A DNA stretch of 25,890 nt from a virus, in the UHGV virus genome UHGV-0135394. One strand, given 5' to 3'. Made by a program: the position numbers and the translations under genes. Positions within the stretch are counted from its first letter, which is position 1. Each line of letters opens with the position of its first letter. Positions 18,618 through 24,263 of the stretch are shown here, one piece after another. Below the pieces are notes generated by a model. That model was not told the DNA's origin and did no database searches. It saw only the letters and a program-made list of their open reading frames with translations.

Positions 18618-19241
18618 CTAACGTGTGACCGCATTCAAAATGTTGTCTGCGATTGACTCTTCTTTGTGGCATTGCACCACCAGAGCGTCATACAGCGGCT
18701 TAACAGTGCGTGACCAGGTGGGTTGAGTAAGGTTTGGGATTAGCATCGTTACAGCGCGATATGCGGCGCTTGCTGGCATTCTTGAATAGCCGACACCTTT
18801 GCATCTTCCGCACTCTTTCTCAACAACTCTCCCCCACTGCTCTGTTTTGGCTATATCAACCGCACGGCCTGTACCGTGGCAATCTCTGCATCTTGCGCCC
18901 GGCGTCGCGGCACTACGGCAATAATCCGCATAAGCGAATGTTGCGAGCACTTGCAGTACCTTTGCCTTAGTATTTCCTTCAAGCTTTGCCACACCACGGT
19001 ATTTCCCCGATACCTTGTGTGCAAATTGCATCAGATAGTTGATAGCCTTTTGTTTGTCGTTCTGGCTGAGTTCGTGCTTACCACAGAATGCAGCCATTCC
19101 GAATCCGGCTTGTGATTGCGCCATCCCCATAGCAGCCATCACATCAGTACCGGAAAGAGAGTCAGAAGCCGTAGCCCGTGGTGAGTCGCTCATCATCGGG
19201 CTTTTTGGCGAATGAAATTTAGCTACGCTTTCGAGCCTCAT
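18618..19241 (-). CDS. Q: Late-gene antiterminator Q, lambda-type (207 aa)
   Basis: Essentially identical to recalled lambda Q, including Cys-rich zinc-binding region CRDCHGTG...CGRCKG. Confidence 0.95.
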   Translation of the reverse strand: MRLESVAKFHSPKSPMMSDSPRATASDSLSGTDVMAAMGMAQSQAGFGMAAFCGKHELSQNDKQKAINYLMQFAHKVSGKYRGVAKLEGNTKAKVLQVLATFAYADYCRSAATPGARCRDCHGTGRAVDIAKTEQWGRVVEKECGRCKGVGYSRMPASAAYRAVTMLIPNLTQPTWSRTVKPLYDALVVQCHKEESIADNILNAVTR

Positions 19242-19426
19242 GGCCTTCCCCTTTTGCCCTGTTTGACCATCAGGACGCCGTTAACTATTACGTGACGCTC
19301 GCCTTTGCTGTCTCGGTTGTACTTGAGCACTGTTCCTCTTGCGCAGGAAAGCATCCTCGCCACTTCGGTCTGATTGCCTCGTGTCTGGATAAGAAGCTCT
19401 GGTATCGTTTGAATTGTGGCGTTCAT
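19238..19426 (-). CDS. ninH: NinH-like protein (62 aa)
   Basis: ...GNQTEVAR...CSRGTV...IVN.VLMV matches recalled lambda NinH; ATGA overlap with Q start. Confidence 0.75.
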   Translation of the reverse strand: MNATIQTIPELLIQTRGNQTEVARMLSCARGTVLKYNRDSKGERHVIVNGVLMVKQGKRGRP

Positions 19427-19785
19427 ACGTTCTCCAGTTCGGTGATTTTTATTCCAAGCCTTCCGCCTGGTACTTTCACACCACGAATTACGCGAATGTC
19501 ATCGAATTGCTCGTCGTCTTCCGCAAATCCGGCGTGGATAAGGGAGTCGAGTAAACCTTTCAGGATGTTGTCGAGGTCGCGGCGGCGGGAGTCTGGAACG
19601 TCTGCGATGACTTTGATGCGGAGTCGTGATTTGGTGAAAATGTCTAACTTGAGTTGGCGGATTATTTGCTGTACATCTTCTCGGTATTTCTGGCCTTTAT
19701 CGCTGATGTAGTATTGGCTTCCCCTTCTTCGCCAGTAGGTATTCAGCGACGGTGGGTACGGAAGCACAAACTGATATTCGTTCAT
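19423..19785 (-). CDS. rusA: Holliday-junction resolvase RusA family (120 aa)
   Basis: Length and motifs (LP.PPS.N.Y...RRRDLDN...GGRL.I.I.E) match RusA; ATGA overlap with ninH. Confidence 0.85.
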   Translation of the reverse strand: MNEYQFVLPYPPSLNTYWRRRGSQYYISDKGQKYREDVQQIIRQLKLDIFTKSRLRIKVIADVPDSRRRDLDNILKGLLDSLIHAGFAEDDEQFDDIRVIRGVKVPGGRLGIKITELENV

Positions 19786-20072
19786 GACTTAATCTTCCCC
19801 TCCTTCAGCAGTATCACCTGCGTCCTGATCACGCCTTCGAGGTGGTAAAGTCTGGCGTCTTTGTTGTCGATATTATGGGTGCGTCGGTCGATTTCATCGT
19901 GACACGCGCTACAAGCCCATGCGCCGATCAGGTCGTCAGGCTTCATTCCCGTTCCGCAAATTCCAGCCATCCGGTAATGTGCCAGAACTGTAGTTTCAGG
20001 GTTGCCATTGCATACGCCGTAAATACGTACCTGACATTCTCTGCCGCGCGCTTCTTTGCGTAGATTAGCCAT
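19782..20072 (-). CDS. ybcO: YbcO-like nin-region protein, putative Cys-rich nuclease (96 aa)
   Basis: MA.LRK.ARGRECQVRI.GVCNGNPET.VLAH...CSACHDEIDRRTH matches recalled DLP12 YbcO; GGGGAGG SD 9 nt upstream; ATGA overlap with rusA. Confidence 0.8.
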   Translation of the reverse strand: MANLRKEARGRECQVRIYGVCNGNPETTVLAHYRMAGICGTGMKPDDLIGAWACSACHDEIDRRTHNIDNKDARLYHLEGVIRTQVILLKEGKIKS

Positions 20073-20392
20073 TAAGCAGCCTCCCCGGTTACTTTCAGCA
20101 TTCCGTTATCGAGCAGCTTTCTGGTCAGCCACTGTTGACCACGCCCGGTGATTTTTGTGGTGAACGATATCTGTATTCCGTGATTTGTGTTGACCGCTGT
20201 TTCTTTCACGGTGAAATAGGCGCGATCACTTTCGTCTACTCCGTTACAAAGCGAGGCTGGGTATTTCCCGGCCTTCCTGTTATCCGAAATCCTCTGAAAG
20301 CACAGCGGCTGGCTGAGGAGATAAATAATAAACGAGGGGCTGTATGCACAAAGCATCTCCTGTTGAGTTAAGAACGAGCATTGAGATGGCAC
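20072..20392 (-). CDS. Hypothetical; probably only the 3' part is a real (possibly 5'-truncated) nin-region gene
   Basis: C-terminal ~60 codons look coding and the stop is coupled (TAATG) to the ybcO-like start; N-terminal ~45 codons are low-complexity and overlap the divergent plus-strand gene by 49 bp. Confidence 0.3.
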   Translation of the reverse strand: MPSQCSFLTQQEMLCAYSPSFIIYLLSQPLCFQRISDNRKAGKYPASLCNGVDESDRAYFTVKETAVNTNHGIQISFTTKITGRGQQWLTRKLLDNGMLKVTGEAA

Positions 20393-20535
20393 ATAGCCTT
20401 GCTCAAATTGGAGTCAAGTTTGTGCCAATACCAGTAGAAACAGACGAAGAATTTCATACGTTAGCCGCATCCCTTTCACAAAAGCTGGAAATGATGGTGG
20501 CGAAAGCAGAAGCAGATGAGAGAGACCAGGTATGA
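20344..20535 (+). CDS. Small early-operon protein (63 aa), acidic
   Basis: SD GAGGGG 5 nt upstream of ATG; first gene of a plus-strand operon pointing toward int; stop overlaps next start (ATGA). Confidence 0.55.
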   Translation: MHKASPVELRTSIEMAHSLAQIGVKFVPIPVETDEEFHTLAASLSQKLEMMVAKAEADERDQV

Positions 20536-20615
20536 CAACCACGGAATGCATTTTTCTGGCAGCGGGCTTCATATTTTGTGTGCTTATGCTTGCCGACATG
20601 GGACTTGTTCAATGA
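20532..20615 (+). CDS. Candidate 27-aa hydrophobic micro-protein (MTTTECIFLAAGFIFCVLMLADMGLVQ)
   Basis: Found by manual reading; ATGA overlaps at both ends couple it to the genes on either side; single predicted TM helix; below ORF-track cutoff. Confidence 0.35.
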   Translation: MTTTECIFLAAGFIFCVLMLADMGLVQ

Positions 20616-20827
20616 CACCTCAGCAAGAAAACGCCCTTCGCAGCATTGCCCGTCTGGCTAACTCTGAAATCAAAAAAGCCAGACAGCAGTTTCCGGATAA
20701 AAACGTCGATGACATTTGCCGTAGCGTACTGAAGAAGCACCGCGAAACGGTAACGCTGATGGGATTCACACCGACTCATTTAAGCCAGGCGATCGGCATG
20801 TTAAACGGCGTCTTTAAGGAGCGATGA
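20612..20827 (+). CDS. Small early-operon protein (71 aa); start at internal Met of the 103-aa ORF
   Basis: ATG at 20612 is translationally coupled to the preceding micro-ORF; the upstream part of the ORF-track frame overlaps two other genes. Confidence 0.55.
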   Translation: MTPQQENALRSIARLANSEIKKARQQFPDKNVDDICRSVLKKHRETVTLMGFTPTHLSQAIGMLNGVFKER

Positions 20828-20848
20828 ACATGAAGAGCAAAATCATCA

Positions 20849-20873
20849 GGGAGCTACAGGCTCCTTTTTTATT
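20849..20873 (+). terminator. Short GC hairpin plus U6 tract inside the early operon (attenuator or sRNA 3' end candidate)
   Basis: GGAGC-UACAG-GCUCC (20850..20864) followed by UUUUUUAUU (20865..20873). Confidence 0.4.
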
Positions 20874-20925
20874 GTTCGCATTCACCCTCAAGCGTATTAA
20901 CCAACAATTCAGGGATTAATGGAAG

Positions 20926-21147
20926 ATGGCAGACATCATTGATTCAGCATCAGAAATTGAAGAATTACAGCGCAACACAGCAATAAAAATGCGCCGCCTG
21001 AACCACCAGGCTATATCTGCCACTCATTGTTGTGAGTGTGGCGATCCCATAGATGAACGAAGACGCCTGGTCGTTCAGGGTTGTCGGACTTGTGCAAGTT
21101 GCCAGGAGGATCTGGAGCTTATCAGTAAACAGAGAGGTTCGAAGTGA
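20926..21147 (+). CDS. C4 zinc-finger protein, TraR/DksA-like (73 aa)
   Basis: CCECGDPI...(16 residues)...CRTCASC four-cysteine motif near C-terminus; SD-like GGAAG upstream. Confidence 0.6.
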   Translation: MADIIDSASEIEELQRNTAIKMRRLNHQAISATHCCECGDPIDERRRLVVQGCRTCASCQEDLELISKQRGSK

Positions 21148-21560
21148 GCGAAATTAACTCTCAGGCACTGCGTGAGGCGGCAGTAGCAATTGAAACAGTA
21201 GCAACGCCTCAAAAATTGCTGGCATTTCGTATGAAAGTCACACCTCAGGTTGTGCTGGCACTGCTGGATGAACGGGAAAGAAACCAGCAATACATCAAAC
21301 GCCGCGACCAAGAGAACGAGGATATTGCGTTAACGGTAGGGAAGTTGCGCGTTGAGCTTGAGGCAGAAAAACAGCGGGCAAAGGATCTGTTTATGGAAAA
21401 TGCTCGGCTTAAGTCAGGTATAGCCGGTCTGATACACCTCGGTATTCGATATGCAGATGTTGAGGTCATGAGAATTGCTGGAGATGCCCAGCTTTCTACC
21501 CCATGCACTGACAGCATCATAAACAGCATTGCAACAGGCATTCGCATCAAAGGAGAGTGA
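21144..21560 (+). CDS. Ea22-like early-region protein (138 aa), GTG start
   Basis: Motif LLDERERNQQYIKRRDQENEDIALTVGKLRVELE is characteristic of lambdoid Ea22-family proteins; SD AGAGAGG 6 nt upstream; start overlaps previous stop. Confidence 0.7.
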   Translation: MSEINSQALREAAVAIETVATPQKLLAFRMKVTPQVVLALLDERERNQQYIKRRDQENEDIALTVGKLRVELEAEKQRAKDLFMENARLKSGIAGLIHLGIRYADVEVMRIAGDAQLSTPCTDSIINSIATGIRIKGE

Positions 21561-21561
21561 T

Positions 21562-22230
21562 ATGAGCGCTATAACCAAAGAACGTATCAAATTATTCATT
21601 AAAAATCCGCTTGATAACGGACTTACTCGTGGCGAACAAATGGAACTGGCACGAATTGCACTGGCATCACTGGAACGCGAACAGATTCGCCACGAGCATG
21701 CCAAATGGTCTGACTCCACATTTGGCTGCGTTGGCCCCATTGGTCCGCTGAAACATCTCTCAAAAGAGGCACTGGAAGCCGCAGCCGAACCAGACGATCT
21801 TAGCGAGTGGGCTGATATGCAGTTTCTGTTGTGGGATGCACAGCGCCGTGCTGGCATCAGCGATGCTGAAATTACCGCTGCTATGGAAGATAAATTGAAG
21901 ATCAACATGGAGCGCCAGTGGCCTGAGCCAAAAGATGGTGAGCCTCGCTTGCACATTAAAGAACCCGGCAACTATCCGGTAACTCCGGATGGTTGGATAA
22001 GCTGTAGTGAGCGAATGCCAGAAATGGGAGAGCGACAATGCTATGTGTTAGCAGCTGACTTTAAAAACAACTACCCACCAAACATCCCCAACACTCAGGT
22101 CGGCGTATATGGCGACTGGTTTAATGATGGCAATCCAACTTGGGATGACGGTGATGGCGAAGACCTGTATCTCAAAGAGGTAACCCACTGGATGCCTCTA
22201 CCAGAACCGCCTCGATTAAAGGAGCTATAA
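21562..22230 (+). CDS. DUF551-type early-region protein (222 aa); start at internal ATG with SD
   Basis: C-terminal ...VTHWMPLPEPP signature of DUF551 domains common in lambdoid ea regions; SD AGGAGA at 21551..21556. Confidence 0.7.
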   Translation: MSAITKERIKLFIKNPLDNGLTRGEQMELARIALASLEREQIRHEHAKWSDSTFGCVGPIGPLKHLSKEALEAAAEPDDLSEWADMQFLLWDAQRRAGISDAEITAAMEDKLKINMERQWPEPKDGEPRLHIKEPGNYPVTPDGWISCSERMPEMGERQCYVLAADFKNNYPPNIPNTQVGVYGDWFNDGNPTWDDGDGEDLYLKEVTHWMPLPEPPRLKEL

Positions 22231-22344
22231 TAGTGAACTATTATATCTATTTGTATTAAAAGAGTTTTTATAAAATAAATCTTCCAAAGCATGTAAAAAC
22301 ACTGTTAATCTTAACGTGTGTGAAACGTGAAGAGAGGTGTTGAA

Positions 22345-22626
22345 ATGAGCATTCATGATTTGTGTGAAGATCAAGAGCAATGGGCTATGCAGACCCTTAT
22401 GGGATCAGGAGTTCTTGCAAGGTGCAGAATCCATAACGATGTAATTTTAGACAGCGGAAATGATGCTTCTTCTGCTTATAAATTAGGAACTTACCTATAT
22501 CAAAAAGATAATAGCTGCAACTTATTCAATACTCTTACTGAAGCCCGCGACGCAATAAAGGATGCATATGAATCGTATTGTGGGATTGATGATTGCCCAC
22601 AATGCTCAAAATACATTGACGATTAA
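22345..22626 (+). CDS. Hypothetical Cys-containing moron protein (93 aa) in AT-rich island
   Basis: SD AGAGAGG 7 nt upstream of ATG 22345; region 22230..22900 is visibly AT-rich relative to flanks; followed by hairpin terminator(s). Confidence 0.55.
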   Translation: MSIHDLCEDQEQWAMQTLMGSGVLARCRIHNDVILDSGNDASSAYKLGTYLYQKDNSCNLFNTLTEARDAIKDAYESYCGIDDCPQCSKYIDD

Positions 22627-22646
22627 TAATATGAACAAGTAACTAT

Positions 22647-22700
22647 CCTCGCACTCGCGGGGATTTCTTTTATCTGAACTCGCTACGGCGAGTTTTGTTT
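22647..22700 (+). terminator. Two tandem hairpins with U-tracts after the 93-aa moron gene
   Basis: CCUCGC-ACUC-GCGGGG + AUUUCUUUUAU (22647..22673) and GAACUCGC-UACG-GCGAGUUU + UGUUUUAU (22676..22702). Confidence 0.45.
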
Positions 22701-22714
22701 TATGGAGATGATAA

Positions 22715-22882
22715 ATGCACTTCCGAGTCACAGGTGAATGGAATGGAGAGCCATTCAACAGAGTTATCGAAGCAGAGAACATCAATGACTGCTATGACCA
22801 CTGGATGCTATGGGCGCAGATAGCACATGCAGACATAACCAATATTCGAATTGAAGAACTGAAAGAACACCAAGCCGCCTGA
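22715..22882 (+). CDS. Hypothetical small protein (55 aa)
   Basis: GGAG SD 7 nt upstream of ATG; stop lies inside a terminator hairpin; below ORF-track cutoff, found by manual reading. Confidence 0.45.
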   Translation: MHFRVTGEWNGEPFNRVIEAENINDCYDHWMLWAQIAHADITNIRIEELKEHQAA

Positions 22883-22897
22883 TGGCGGTTTATTTTT
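22874..22897 (+). terminator. Intrinsic terminator between moron cassette and alpA-like gene
   Basis: GCCGCC-UGAU-GGCGGU stem-loop followed by UUAUUUUU. Confidence 0.5.
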
Positions 22898-22912
22898 GCC
22901 TGGAGAATTAAG

Positions 22913-23104
22913 ATGACCGATACCAGCCTGATTCCTGAGAAAGAAGTGATGAACAAGCTCGGTGTTTCATCACGTCAGACAATCTGGAACTATACCAAAC
23001 GGCACGGATTTCCGAAGCCAGTCAGAACCCACCCCAAATCATACCTTCGTGAAGCTGTTGAAGGGTGGATTCTTAACGGTGGCGTTAATCAGAAATGCTC
23101 CTGA
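22913..23104 (+). CDS. AlpA/excisionase-family HTH protein (63 aa)
   Basis: Short HTH-like protein adjacent to a P4-type integrase; 3' end overlaps the integrase 3' end by 20 bp on the opposite strand. Confidence 0.7.
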   Translation: MTDTSLIPEKEVMNKLGVSSRQTIWNYTKRHGFPKPVRTHPKSYLREAVEGWILNGGVNQKCS

Positions 23105-24263
23105 TGTGCCAGAACAATTTATCAGCGTGAAGCTCATACGCTTTGCGCTGAGCCTCTATCCAGTCGTGTTTATTGTATACGGACATTATCCCGCCAAGTT
23201 CATGACCGAGCATTCGCTCAGTAACATGAGGCTCGACATTCATCTCGGACAGACGTGTAACAAGCGTTCTTCTGAAATCATGTGTTCGCCAGTAACCCAG
23301 ATCCATCCCTCCCCTTATTCGATTTACGAATCGGTTGGCTGCAGCGATGCTGATCGGTTTGTTTATGTCTTCTCCAGGGAAAAGAACATCATTGTACGTT
23401 GTCATGGCCTTTTCGAGGAAAGGCTTAATTTGTTCGAAGATTGGACGGCGGATAACATTACCCATCTTGCTATGCTCTTTCGGTACGGTCCATACGTTGT
23501 CCAGCAGGTCAAACTCTGTCTTTGTTGCCAGCCTAAGCTCTGAGAGCCTCGCCCCCCACAGCATAAGCATCTGATGAAGGAGCTTATTTGACGTAGACGC
23601 ACGGCTTCTTTCAATAGCAAGCCAAATCTTAGCCAGTTCGTGATACGACAGTACCCGATCCCCTACCTCAGCGCGGGAGCCGAAGTCCCTTGGTTGGATG
23701 CTCATAATTGCGCAACTATCTATCAACTGACGCCGCATGCACCAACTTATTGCTGATCTTAGTTGACTTAGCACCTGCCTTGCTCGGCGTGGATTATCTC
23801 TTTCTTCTTCGGTAAGCAGGTCAACCCATTGCTTAACCGTGATAGAAGATGCCGGACGATTAGGAAAGGCGTCATGCATGCGCTTCATAACCGTTGATCG
23901 GTAAAGTGCCTGGGTCTTTTCTCTGAGAGTTGTAGAGACGTAGTTGTCGAACCAGTAGTCGAGACACTGGGCGACCGTCATGGAGTTCTCCACCTTCTCT
24001 TCAAAATAAGTGCGTGGATCCGTTCCTGAGAAATAGAGCTTTCGCAAGTCAGCAGTGATCTGTCTGGCATCCTTCAAAGACAGGGATGGGTATCGACCAA
24101 GCCCAAGTCGATTAGGCTTGCCATGCCAGCGATAGCGGTACTGGAACTGGATGACCCCCTTCGGTGAAATTCGTACGCTGAGGCCATCGGCATCAGCCAC
24201 TTCTTGTGGGCCAGAATATGGTTTACCATAAATAGTACGCAGTTTTGTGTCGCTTATAGCCAT
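23085..24263 (-). CDS. int: Tyrosine site-specific integrase, P4-type with N-terminal arm-binding domain (392 aa)
   Basis: N-terminal DUF4102-like domain (...GLSVRISPKGVIQFQYRYRWHGKPNRLGLGRYPSLSLKDAR); catalytic signature HDFRRT ... LGHELGG ... SVY near C-terminus; located at the prophage-host junction. Confidence 0.92.
   Translation of the reverse strand: MAISDTKLRTIYGKPYSGPQEVADADGLSVRISPKGVIQFQYRYRWHGKPNRLGLGRYPSLSLKDARQITADLRKLYFSGTDPRTYFEEKVENSMTVAQCLDYWFDNYVSTTLREKTQALYRSTVMKRMHDAFPNRPASSITVKQWVDLLTEEERDNPRRARQVLSQLRSAISWCMRRQLIDSCAIMSIQPRDFGSRAEVGDRVLSYHELAKIWLAIERSRASTSNKLLHQMLMLWGARLSELRLATKTEFDLLDNVWTVPKEHSKMGNVIRRPIFEQIKPFLEKAMTTYNDVLFPGEDINKPISIAAANRFVNRIRGGMDLGYWRTHDFRRTLVTRLSEMNVEPHVTERMLGHELGGIMSVYNKHDWIEAQRKAYELHADKLFWHIRSISD

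Follow-up and report, generated by a model that had tools for sequence, protein, structure and literature searches.

A predicted pL-operon terminator, t2, inside a small orf61-coupled ORF upstream of orf73 in a lambdoid prophage remnant

The hairpin and the prophage remnant that carries it

A hairpin followed by a run of U between two genes read in the same direction raises the question of what it does there: end transcription, supply the 3′ end of a small RNA, tune the gene downstream, or nothing at all. Such an element lies in the 98-nt gap between an orf61-type and an orf73-type gene of UHGV virus genome UHGV-0135394, and we refer to the whole stretch of DNA analyzed (25,890 nt) as the window. 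A sequence-only reading had described a GGAGC-UACAG-GCUCC stem and U-tract in this gap, overlapped by a possible 31-aa coupled ORF, and had proposed either an sRNA 3′ end in the manner of DicF or an attenuator. The stem was found as described at 20850-20864 with its T-run at 20865-20870, and the ORF exists at 20824-20919, its start overlapping the orf61 stop as ATGA. The features of the region are listed here by position in the window.

About 20217, strand not applicable: approximate deletion junction, inside orf60a, where lambda homology starts
From about 20217, left of orf63: orf60a (DUF1317), truncated, homologous to lambda from this point (Pfam and annotated relatives)
20244-20285, plus strand: terminator-like hairpin t1 (Bloch et al. 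2014), inside the truncated orf60a, with one change relative to t1
20344-20535: orf63 (DUF1382; Pfam and annotated relatives)
20612-20827, plus strand: orf61-type gene coding for 71 aa (phrog_303, function unknown), 5′ of the putative terminator
20824-20919, plus strand: small ORF of 31 codons (MNMKSKIIRELQAPFLLFAFTLKRINQQFRD), containing the hairpin and U-tract
20848-20866, plus strand: putative terminator hairpin, 5′ arm AGGGAGCU, loop ACA, 3′ arm GGCUCCUU
20865-20876, plus strand: U-tract TTTTTTATTGTT, directly 3′ of the stem
20911-20915, plus strand: AGGGA, likely Shine-Dalgarno sequence of orf73, 10 nt ahead of its ATG
20926-21147, plus strand: orf73-type gene, TraR/DksA C4 zinc-finger protein (Pfam PF01258), the first gene 3′ of the putative terminator

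The orf61-type gene stops with TGA at 20825-20827 and the orf73-type ATG is at 20926, leaving 20828-20925 as the gap. Within it, GGGAGCU-ACA-GGCUCCU occupies 20848-20866 and is followed by UUUUUUAUUGUU; in the core of the hairpin, GGAGC (20850-20854) pairs with GCUCC (20860-20864) and UACAG (20855-20859) lies between them. The element is on the plus strand like the flanking genes, 21 nt past the orf61 stop and 60 nt ahead of the orf73 ATG. A terminator scan gave a stem of 8 pairs (4 of them G-C) with the tail TTTTATTGTT, and the stem is a modest one that is closed by G-U pairs at both ends. ATTGTT follows the T-run, whose first two T are able to pair at the foot of the stem, and the U-tract is read as Phe-Leu-Leu in the small ORF. 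What is expected of an intrinsic terminator is present, namely a GC-rich stem of at least 5 pairs, a loop of 3-8 nt and an adjoining U-tract on the same strand near a gene end.

How far this exceeds chance was examined by folding and shuffling. The 40-nt piece holding the hairpin folds at −10.2 kcal/mol (z = −2.3), a value equalled in 6 of 200 shuffles, and when 151 nt were folded the hairpin was seen in the minimum free energy and centroid structures alike. Across 19000-23500 (4.5 kb) there are 10 terminator-like sites against 4.6 ± 2.4 in shuffled sequence, an enrichment of about twofold. Taken by itself, then, the hairpin exceeds chance modestly, and what raises it further is that related prophages conserve it, with compensatory changes in the stem. 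In E. coli a common variant (G20849 to T) cuts the stem to 6 pairs.

The genes around the gap place it in a well-known operon. The orf73-type product is identical to lambda Orf73 (100% over 73 aa; lambda 30395-30613), and together the genes make up the exo-xis segment, part of the leftward early operon in lambdoid phages; ea22-like, ea8.5-like and AlpA-like genes also belong to the segment. Immediately left of the junction, on the minus strand, is a 3′ fragment of a KilAC/ANT-domain gene, followed by ybcO, rusA and Q. The window contains no pL, nutL, N, cIII through exo (including bet and gam), immunity region or replication genes; these are deleted, lambda homology beginning only at about 20217. 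Related prophages measure about 35 kb compared with about 25 kb in the window. With the promoter pL and N deleted, what looks like an operon in the window is a remnant, in which the t1 hairpin and the orf61-orf73 hairpin remain as tandem terminators with no known promoter upstream of them. The t1 hairpin folds at −17.6 kcal/mol, making the orf61-orf73 stem the weaker of the two. It is probably lambda tL3, going by the lambda interval in pKD46 (31088-33241).

The element between orf61 and orf73 is already known, as it matches the predicted terminator t2 of phages lambda and 24B. Bloch et al. 2014 (PMC4195576) gave t2 of both phages as 'AAAATCATCAGGGAGCT ACA GGCTCCTTTTTTATTATT', with an RNAmotif energy of −8.3 kcal/mol. 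The window shares AAAATCATCAGGGAGCT ACA GGCTCCTTTTTTATT(A/G)TT with it at 37 of 38 positions, the one difference being an A to G change in the tail at 20874 (ATTATT to ATTGTT), and the flanking genes, orientation and distance to orf73 are alike. The two differ in setting, as the window's element sits in a prophage remnant without pL and N. That paper predicted termination at t2, and it is silent on the embedding small ORF and on compensatory changes. The lambda copy of the hairpin lies at about 30673-30691 on the leftward strand (L003 3174-3192); lambda GenBank records have no annotation at this site, and a search of the literature found no report testing termination at t2.

The module is widespread. 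Of 5426 complete E. coli genomes, 3366 carry the 901-nt stretch around the hairpin at above 95% identity, and the 98-nt gap itself was found in 3291 of the 5426 (4669 copies) and in 182 phage records, including lambda, 434, 933W and VT2-Sakai. In Sakai prophages Sp5 and Sp15 and in strain J31, N, cIII, kil, gam, bet and exo precede the module and share its orientation.

Evolution of the stem and of the small ORF

Diverged orf73 genes led us to prophages of Enterobacter, Citrobacter, Lelliottia and others in which the spacer is clearly homologous. Their stems are written differently (GGUCGC/GCGGCC, GGGAGC/GCUCCC, GGCCUCU/AGAGGCU and GGGAC/GUCCC), and the U-run always adjoins. There were 45 distinct haplotypes, all but one of which fold, at about −3.5 to −13 kcal/mol. 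Since MAFFT misaligned the stems of the two E. coli spacer types (A and B), we measured covariation in codon-anchored, ungapped sets split by pairing register. In the 23 distinct sequences sharing one register, 3 pairs were changed on both sides and 11 further pair types occurred; covariation was 0.202 compared with 0.125 in shuffles, none of the 500 shuffles reached the observed value, and slid controls were all lower. A second set of 20 sequences, with the register shifted by one, added one more compensated pair. Conservation of the hairpin in related prophages, which the sequence-only reading had named as a way to judge it, is thus seen as pairing that is kept through compensatory changes across four stem types.

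E. coli has a second spacer type, type B. It is found upstream of orf73 genes that are 71-74% identical and after an antirepressor-like gene, for example in Shigella phage 75/02 Stx and at a second locus of VT2-Sakai. Its flanks cannot be aligned with those of type A and only 20 nt separate it from the ATG, and it keeps AAGGAGC-UUCG-GCUCCUU with six T (−14.2 kcal/mol), so that the GGAGC/GCUCC stem is common to both types. The T-run is kept across all three spacer types (A, B and the Enterobacter type). The single lineage without the hairpin, L199, is missing the U-run too. From the compensatory stems, the type B stem and this joint loss, we take the hairpin and U-run to be a selected RNA unit, in other words a terminator by prediction. 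The compensatory stem changes are the first comparative evidence pointing to lambda t2 as a selected RNA structure.

Variation within E. coli, where the copies are nearly identical throughout, does not add to this picture, as the hairpin is polymorphic at 4 of 28 sites compared with 17-23% in the flanking genes, meaning it is no less variable and polymorphism density fails to set it apart. Across copies, the terminator-like element accompanies the small-ORF module in 193 of 196. It is dispensable for orf73, since about a third of the Enterobacter-type homologues do without one (module and terminator are both missing at 32 of the 96 loci examined). No hairpin is present at more distant TraR homologues, those of Klebsiella, Salmonella and phage Flotzy, which overlap their upstream gene. 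Three sequences considered as distant orf61 homologues (P0064, P0070 and P0072) were set aside as uninformative, being either assemblies rich in errors or variants at the N-terminus whose 3′ end and gap are unchanged.

The second conserved feature of the gap is the small ORF. Its first ATG overlaps the orf61 stop and its TAA is 6 nt ahead of the orf73 ATG; a second ATG at 20830, 8 nt after AAGGAG (20816-20821), would give 29 codons. Among about 200 copies of the module, drawn from several genera, almost all keep the frame open, and across these the start often overlaps the upstream stop and the stop falls 1-6 nt ahead of the orf73 ATG. Family-wide the peptide reads ...ITRxLxxPFLLLAFTFNRINRQFREH* across genera. 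Over the last 18 codons pN/pS is 0.28-0.58 (four lineages), and the other two frames have stops in most comparisons. Within the hairpin, amino acids covary only as the stem dictates (RSLxRP as opposed to RELxAP), indicating that the RNA pairing rather than the peptide is constrained there; downstream of the hairpin, the peptide is the constrained part. The final codons of the small ORF include the AGGGA that likely serves orf73 as its Shine-Dalgarno sequence, and Enterobacter-type copies keep an equivalent GGGAG.

Two genomes give an indication of where the small ORF came from. In L192 (Citrobacter sp. OP27) and L199 (Enterobacteriaceae G50) the small peptide is the C-terminus of a full-length orf61 homologue of 74 aa, which has 43% identity to the window's orf61 product over 70 residues (E = 6e-18). 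The E. coli gap thus corresponds by homology to the last third (3′) of a second orf61-type allele. It probably derives from such an allele, and it still carries the terminator-like hairpin and the orf73 junction, retained behind a complete orf61. Within E. coli the small ORF has 4 synonymous, 6 non-synonymous and 2 nonsense changes (the latter singletons) and no third-position bias; this neutral-looking pattern is some evidence against a protein function in that species. The small peptide (PFLLxAFTxxRINxQFRE) might nonetheless act in its own right. RefSeq has no annotation in the gap in the genomes listed and PHROGs has no family for the peptide; some phage records annotate the small ORF as a CDS. 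In about 60% of complete E. coli genomes, as in lambda and the Shiga-toxin phages, the orf61-orf73 "gap" holds a conserved and mostly unannotated ORF of 29-31 codons. Compared with the literature, the compensatory stem changes and the conserved, orf61-derived and orf73-coupled ORF around the terminator are new, and we consider this a modest addition.

A probable terminator in the pL operon and its possible link to translation

Taken together, we think it very probable that the hairpin is t2, an intrinsic terminator of the pL operon that N-modified polymerase reads through, embedded in a coupled small ORF and likely a relic in the window. It would act as a Rho-independent terminator in the exo-xis segment, between orf61 and orf73. 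We infer that in an intact phage, polymerase unmodified by N would stop at the hairpin, and N-modified polymerase coming from pL would pass it and go on to orf73, ea22, xis and int. Antitermination by N overrides the internal terminators of the lambda pL operon, and the orf61-orf73 hairpin resembles these (tL1, the tL2 cluster and tL3) in being an intrinsic hairpin with a U-run, co-directional with the operon, and in lying within coding sequence, as some of them do; N-modified polymerase would be expected to read through it likewise. It is not known to be among the classically mapped pL terminators. In the window, where pL, N and the whole immunity and replication region have been lost, the terminator has most likely been inherited as a relic and would have no regulated transcription left to control.

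Expression data are available for both phages in which t2 was predicted. In lambda, RT-qPCR showed orf73, ea22 and ea8.5 mRNA at levels below those of the upstream genes, an indirect sign in favour of a terminator, whereas in phage 24B this drop was not seen and orf73 and ea22 were as high as N despite the same hairpin (PMC4195576). The 24B result counts against a terminator, as do the modest stem, the E. coli polymorphism that equals the flanks and the dispensability for orf73. Orf73 of lambda, a homologue of TraR, acts on RNA polymerase by binding it and inhibits rRNA and ribosomal-protein promoters; it slows host growth, raises phage yield and is made from pL early after induction (PMC9239242). 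The arrangement of terminator and small ORF is immediately upstream of this gene whose product reprograms host transcription and slows host growth, and because of that position, the tightness with which orf73 is shielded from leaky transcription in lysogens can be put as a concrete question and tested.

The position of the hairpin inside a conserved ORF that is translationally coupled to orf61 is also the reason we keep the attenuator half of the original proposal, as a tentative possibility that would add to termination at t2 instead of excluding it. In this scheme a ribosome close behind the polymerase would melt the 5′ arm and allow read-through, given that the hairpin is inside an orf61-coupled ORF ending beside the orf73 start, and transcription uncoupled from translation would terminate. 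Synthesis of a TraR-like inhibitor of rRNA transcription would then be tied to translational capacity, in the way of the pyrBI and pyrE leaders. In the pyrBI leader and the rph-pyrE attenuator, translation up to or through the terminator hairpin suppresses termination. The orf61-orf73 spacer likewise has either a short ORF running through the hairpin (types A and C) or a stop just before it (type B), and both arrangements are coupled to the downstream gene. It differs in that no nucleotide-sensing pause or regulatory codons were identified and the operon has its own antiterminator, N.

Several features of the locus are consistent with such a mechanism. The ORF is open in nearly every copy, coupled to orf61 and adjoining the orf73 start; AAGGAG is 8 nt ahead of the ATG at 20830; pN/pS is below one (0.28-0.58) with the other frames mostly closed; and some phage records already carry the ORF as a CDS. 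Type B has no small ORF, and there the stop of the upstream gene is only 4-5 nt ahead of the hairpin, close enough for the 5′ arm to be covered by a ribosome that terminates at it. In L192 the terminator-like element lies within the full-length orf61 homologue. Against it, E. coli polymorphism shows no third-position bias and RefSeq leaves the gap unannotated in the genomes listed, and a regulatory codon run, a pause element or an alternative antiterminator pairing was not evident in the 151-nt fold or the peptide. N antitermination by itself would already account for read-through in lambda. Embedding in coding sequence need not imply regulation either, since the operon has other terminators placed this way, such as t1 in orf60a. 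The stronger proposal, that the ORF of about 30 codons is a translated bridge from orf61 to the TraR-like orf73 that makes the embedded terminator translation-gated, seems to us rather doubtful. If it were true, the supply of ribosomes would feed back on a phage factor that itself turns off the making of ribosomes.

Promoter, small RNA and chance explanations

Besides t2, Bloch et al. reported a BPROM promoter, p1, that overlaps it (PMC4195576), and it is conceivable, though very unlikely, that this internal sigma-70 promoter (−35 TCATCA, −10 TTTTATTAT) drives orf73 and ea22 independently of pL and that the hairpin is incidental. Its BPROM score is 4.82, and the high orf73 and ea22 mRNA seen in 24B after hydrogen peroxide induction (PMC4195576) would fit. 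However, the −35 shares just 3 of its 6 positions with TTGACA and is about 21 nt from TATTAT, the window reads TATTGT, and a consensus scan found no promoter-like site in the region; p1 was rejected as the main explanation on the scan and the −35/−10 spacing. TCATCA is not kept in type B or Enterobacter-type spacers, and a promoter leaves the compensatory stem changes unexplained.

The suggestion that the terminator forms the 3′ end of a regulatory sRNA, either cut from orf61 mRNA or made from its own promoter, we consider highly improbable. It has some appeal, as a hairpin with at least six U is the usual Hfq-binding 3′ end and the same operon provides a real precedent at another site, where the lambda sRNA LPR1/PreS ends at terminator tL2a. 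Both PreS and the orf61-orf73 hairpin involve internal pL-operon terminators with a GC-rich stem and poly-U tail. PreS, however, is Hfq-enriched, runs as distinct bands of 88 and 68 nt and possesses a seed (bioRxiv 10.1101/2024.10.31.621285), none of which is known for the orf61-orf73 site, where the 5′ flank is not conserved. Variation is greatest in the 20-60 nt on the 5′ side of the hairpin, with 6 of 20 sites polymorphic in E. coli, and these nucleotides are unrelated among type A, type B and Enterobacter-type spacers, which leaves no conserved sRNA seed; the conserved part is 3′ of the terminator. A consensus scan found no promoter-like site in 19000-23500, and pL is absent from the window.

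Two published sets of Hfq data, neither of them a dedicated test of this site, are in line with this. Table S2 of Tree et al. 2014 gives 60-odd orphan sites of Hfq binding for O157 Sakai, none of them at the gap copies, and there is no Hfq-CRAC peak at the Sakai copies in those cultures, which were not induced; the sites compared were the Sp5 gap (1251248-1251345), the Sp15 gap (2939331-2939428) and a computed type B site near 1305900. The lambda RIL-seq preprint (bioRxiv 10.1101/2024.10.31.621285) reports LPR1/PreS, LPR2 and 6S RNA as the only Hfq-bound phage sRNAs, and its supplements do not mention orf61, orf63 or ea22. In papers on the svsR and Pas sRNAs, TraR, orf61, ea22 and the exo-xis region all go unmentioned. 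HnrS was considered and set aside, being located in phage late genes.

DicF (RF00039), of the dicB operon in the Qin prophage, is the sRNA that had been put forward as the model arrangement, with the caveat that the sequence did not resemble it. The caveat was borne out, as a search of Rfam that included the DicF covariance model gave no match at the gathering threshold or E ≤ 10. The likeness is confined to a terminator-like 3′ hairpin between early-operon genes of a prophage: there is no match in sequence or structure, the neighbouring genes are not homologous, and the gap is 98 nt here and 566 nt between ydfC and dicB in K-12. We also compared the neighbours with YdfA and YdfC, and orf63 with YdfA and orf61 with YdfC were unalignable at E ≤ 100. 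With no Rfam match, non-homologous dicB neighbours, an unconserved 5′ flank and published Hfq lists that do not include the site, the DicF-type arrangement falls away and the sRNA reading is not supported; what holds of the proposal is an intrinsic-terminator-like element within a phage operon. We see in the element a routine component of the phage operon that has been studied most, and advise against pursuing it as a new DicF-like sRNA.

Least tenable is a functionless chance hairpin in an AT-rich spacer, for which the enrichment of terminator-like motifs by only about twofold, the 6 of 200 equally stable shuffles and the flank-like E. coli polymorphism would speak, as it is disfavoured by the stem covariation and would have to account for four different stems pairing at the same place beside the same U-run and for the joint loss of both in one lineage.

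Small genes between orf60a and orf73

The protein annotated as 'orf61' in lambda has 61 aa and is not the one of 71 aa (or 103 aa) found elsewhere. This is explained by an A-run in orf61 (window about 20667-20672; lambda region 30839-31024), which is A6 in the window and 91 of the 103 related loci and A7, with a shift of the frame, in reference lambda and six of those loci. Between orf63 and orf61 we found a small ORF bridging the two genes:

20532-20615, +, 27-codon hydrophobic ORF encoding the peptide MTTTECIFLAAGFIFCVLMLADMGLVQ

Both of its ends overlap the neighbouring genes as ATGA, and an identical copy is present in 89 of the 103 related loci. A search for a PHROG family for this ORF gave none; it could encode a small membrane peptide, or could merely be an out-of-frame N-terminal extension region of orf61. 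The preceding gene, orf63 (20344-20535), carries 23 non-synonymous against 12 synonymous variants across 72 haplotypes and lacks a third-position bias, in contrast to orf61 and orf73. This pattern could come from mosaicism among alleles, from relaxed constraint or from a signal that overlaps the gene.

Further terminator-like hairpins and a second orf73

One further hairpin lies within a coding sequence, and a group of others lies towards the integrase end:

20244-20285, +, t1-like hairpin within the orf60a coding sequence, strong at -17.6 kcal/mol
22645-22695 and 22872-22891, +, three or four hairpins resembling terminators, clustered between the ea8.5-like gene and the downstream AlpA-like gene

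The hairpin within orf60a has a weak U-tract, CCUUCCUGUUAUCC, and we take it to be, probably, lambda tL3. It equals predicted terminator t1 save for one change, and two hairpins of the downstream cluster are similar to predicted lambda terminators, t5 included (Bloch et al. 2014, Table 4 for the latter; PMC4195576). Stx2 phages, VT2-Sakai and other records, each carry two TraR-like orf73 genes, one following orf61 (type A, as in the window) and the other (type B), close to the opposite end of the prophage, following an antirepressor-like gene, and the GGAGC/GCUCC hairpin with T6 is found upstream of both.

Prophage junction and integrase end

A prophage deletion junction lies within 20072-20344, near 20217, where orf60a (DUF1317) is truncated, with about nine N-terminal codons missing, and adjoins an opposite-strand 3′ fragment of a KilAC/ANT-domain gene, with ybcO, rusA and Q beside it. 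Related prophages have, and the window lacks, a segment of about 10 kb with pL, N, red and the immunity and replication genes. No tRNA gene was found in the window. At the other end of the operon remnant are two genes that converge with a 20-nt overlap:

22913-23104, +, AlpA-like gene
within 22913-24263, -, integrase of 392 aa (Arm-DNA-bind_3 and Phage_integrase)

This arrangement differs from lambda and strain J31, where xis and int are co-directional.
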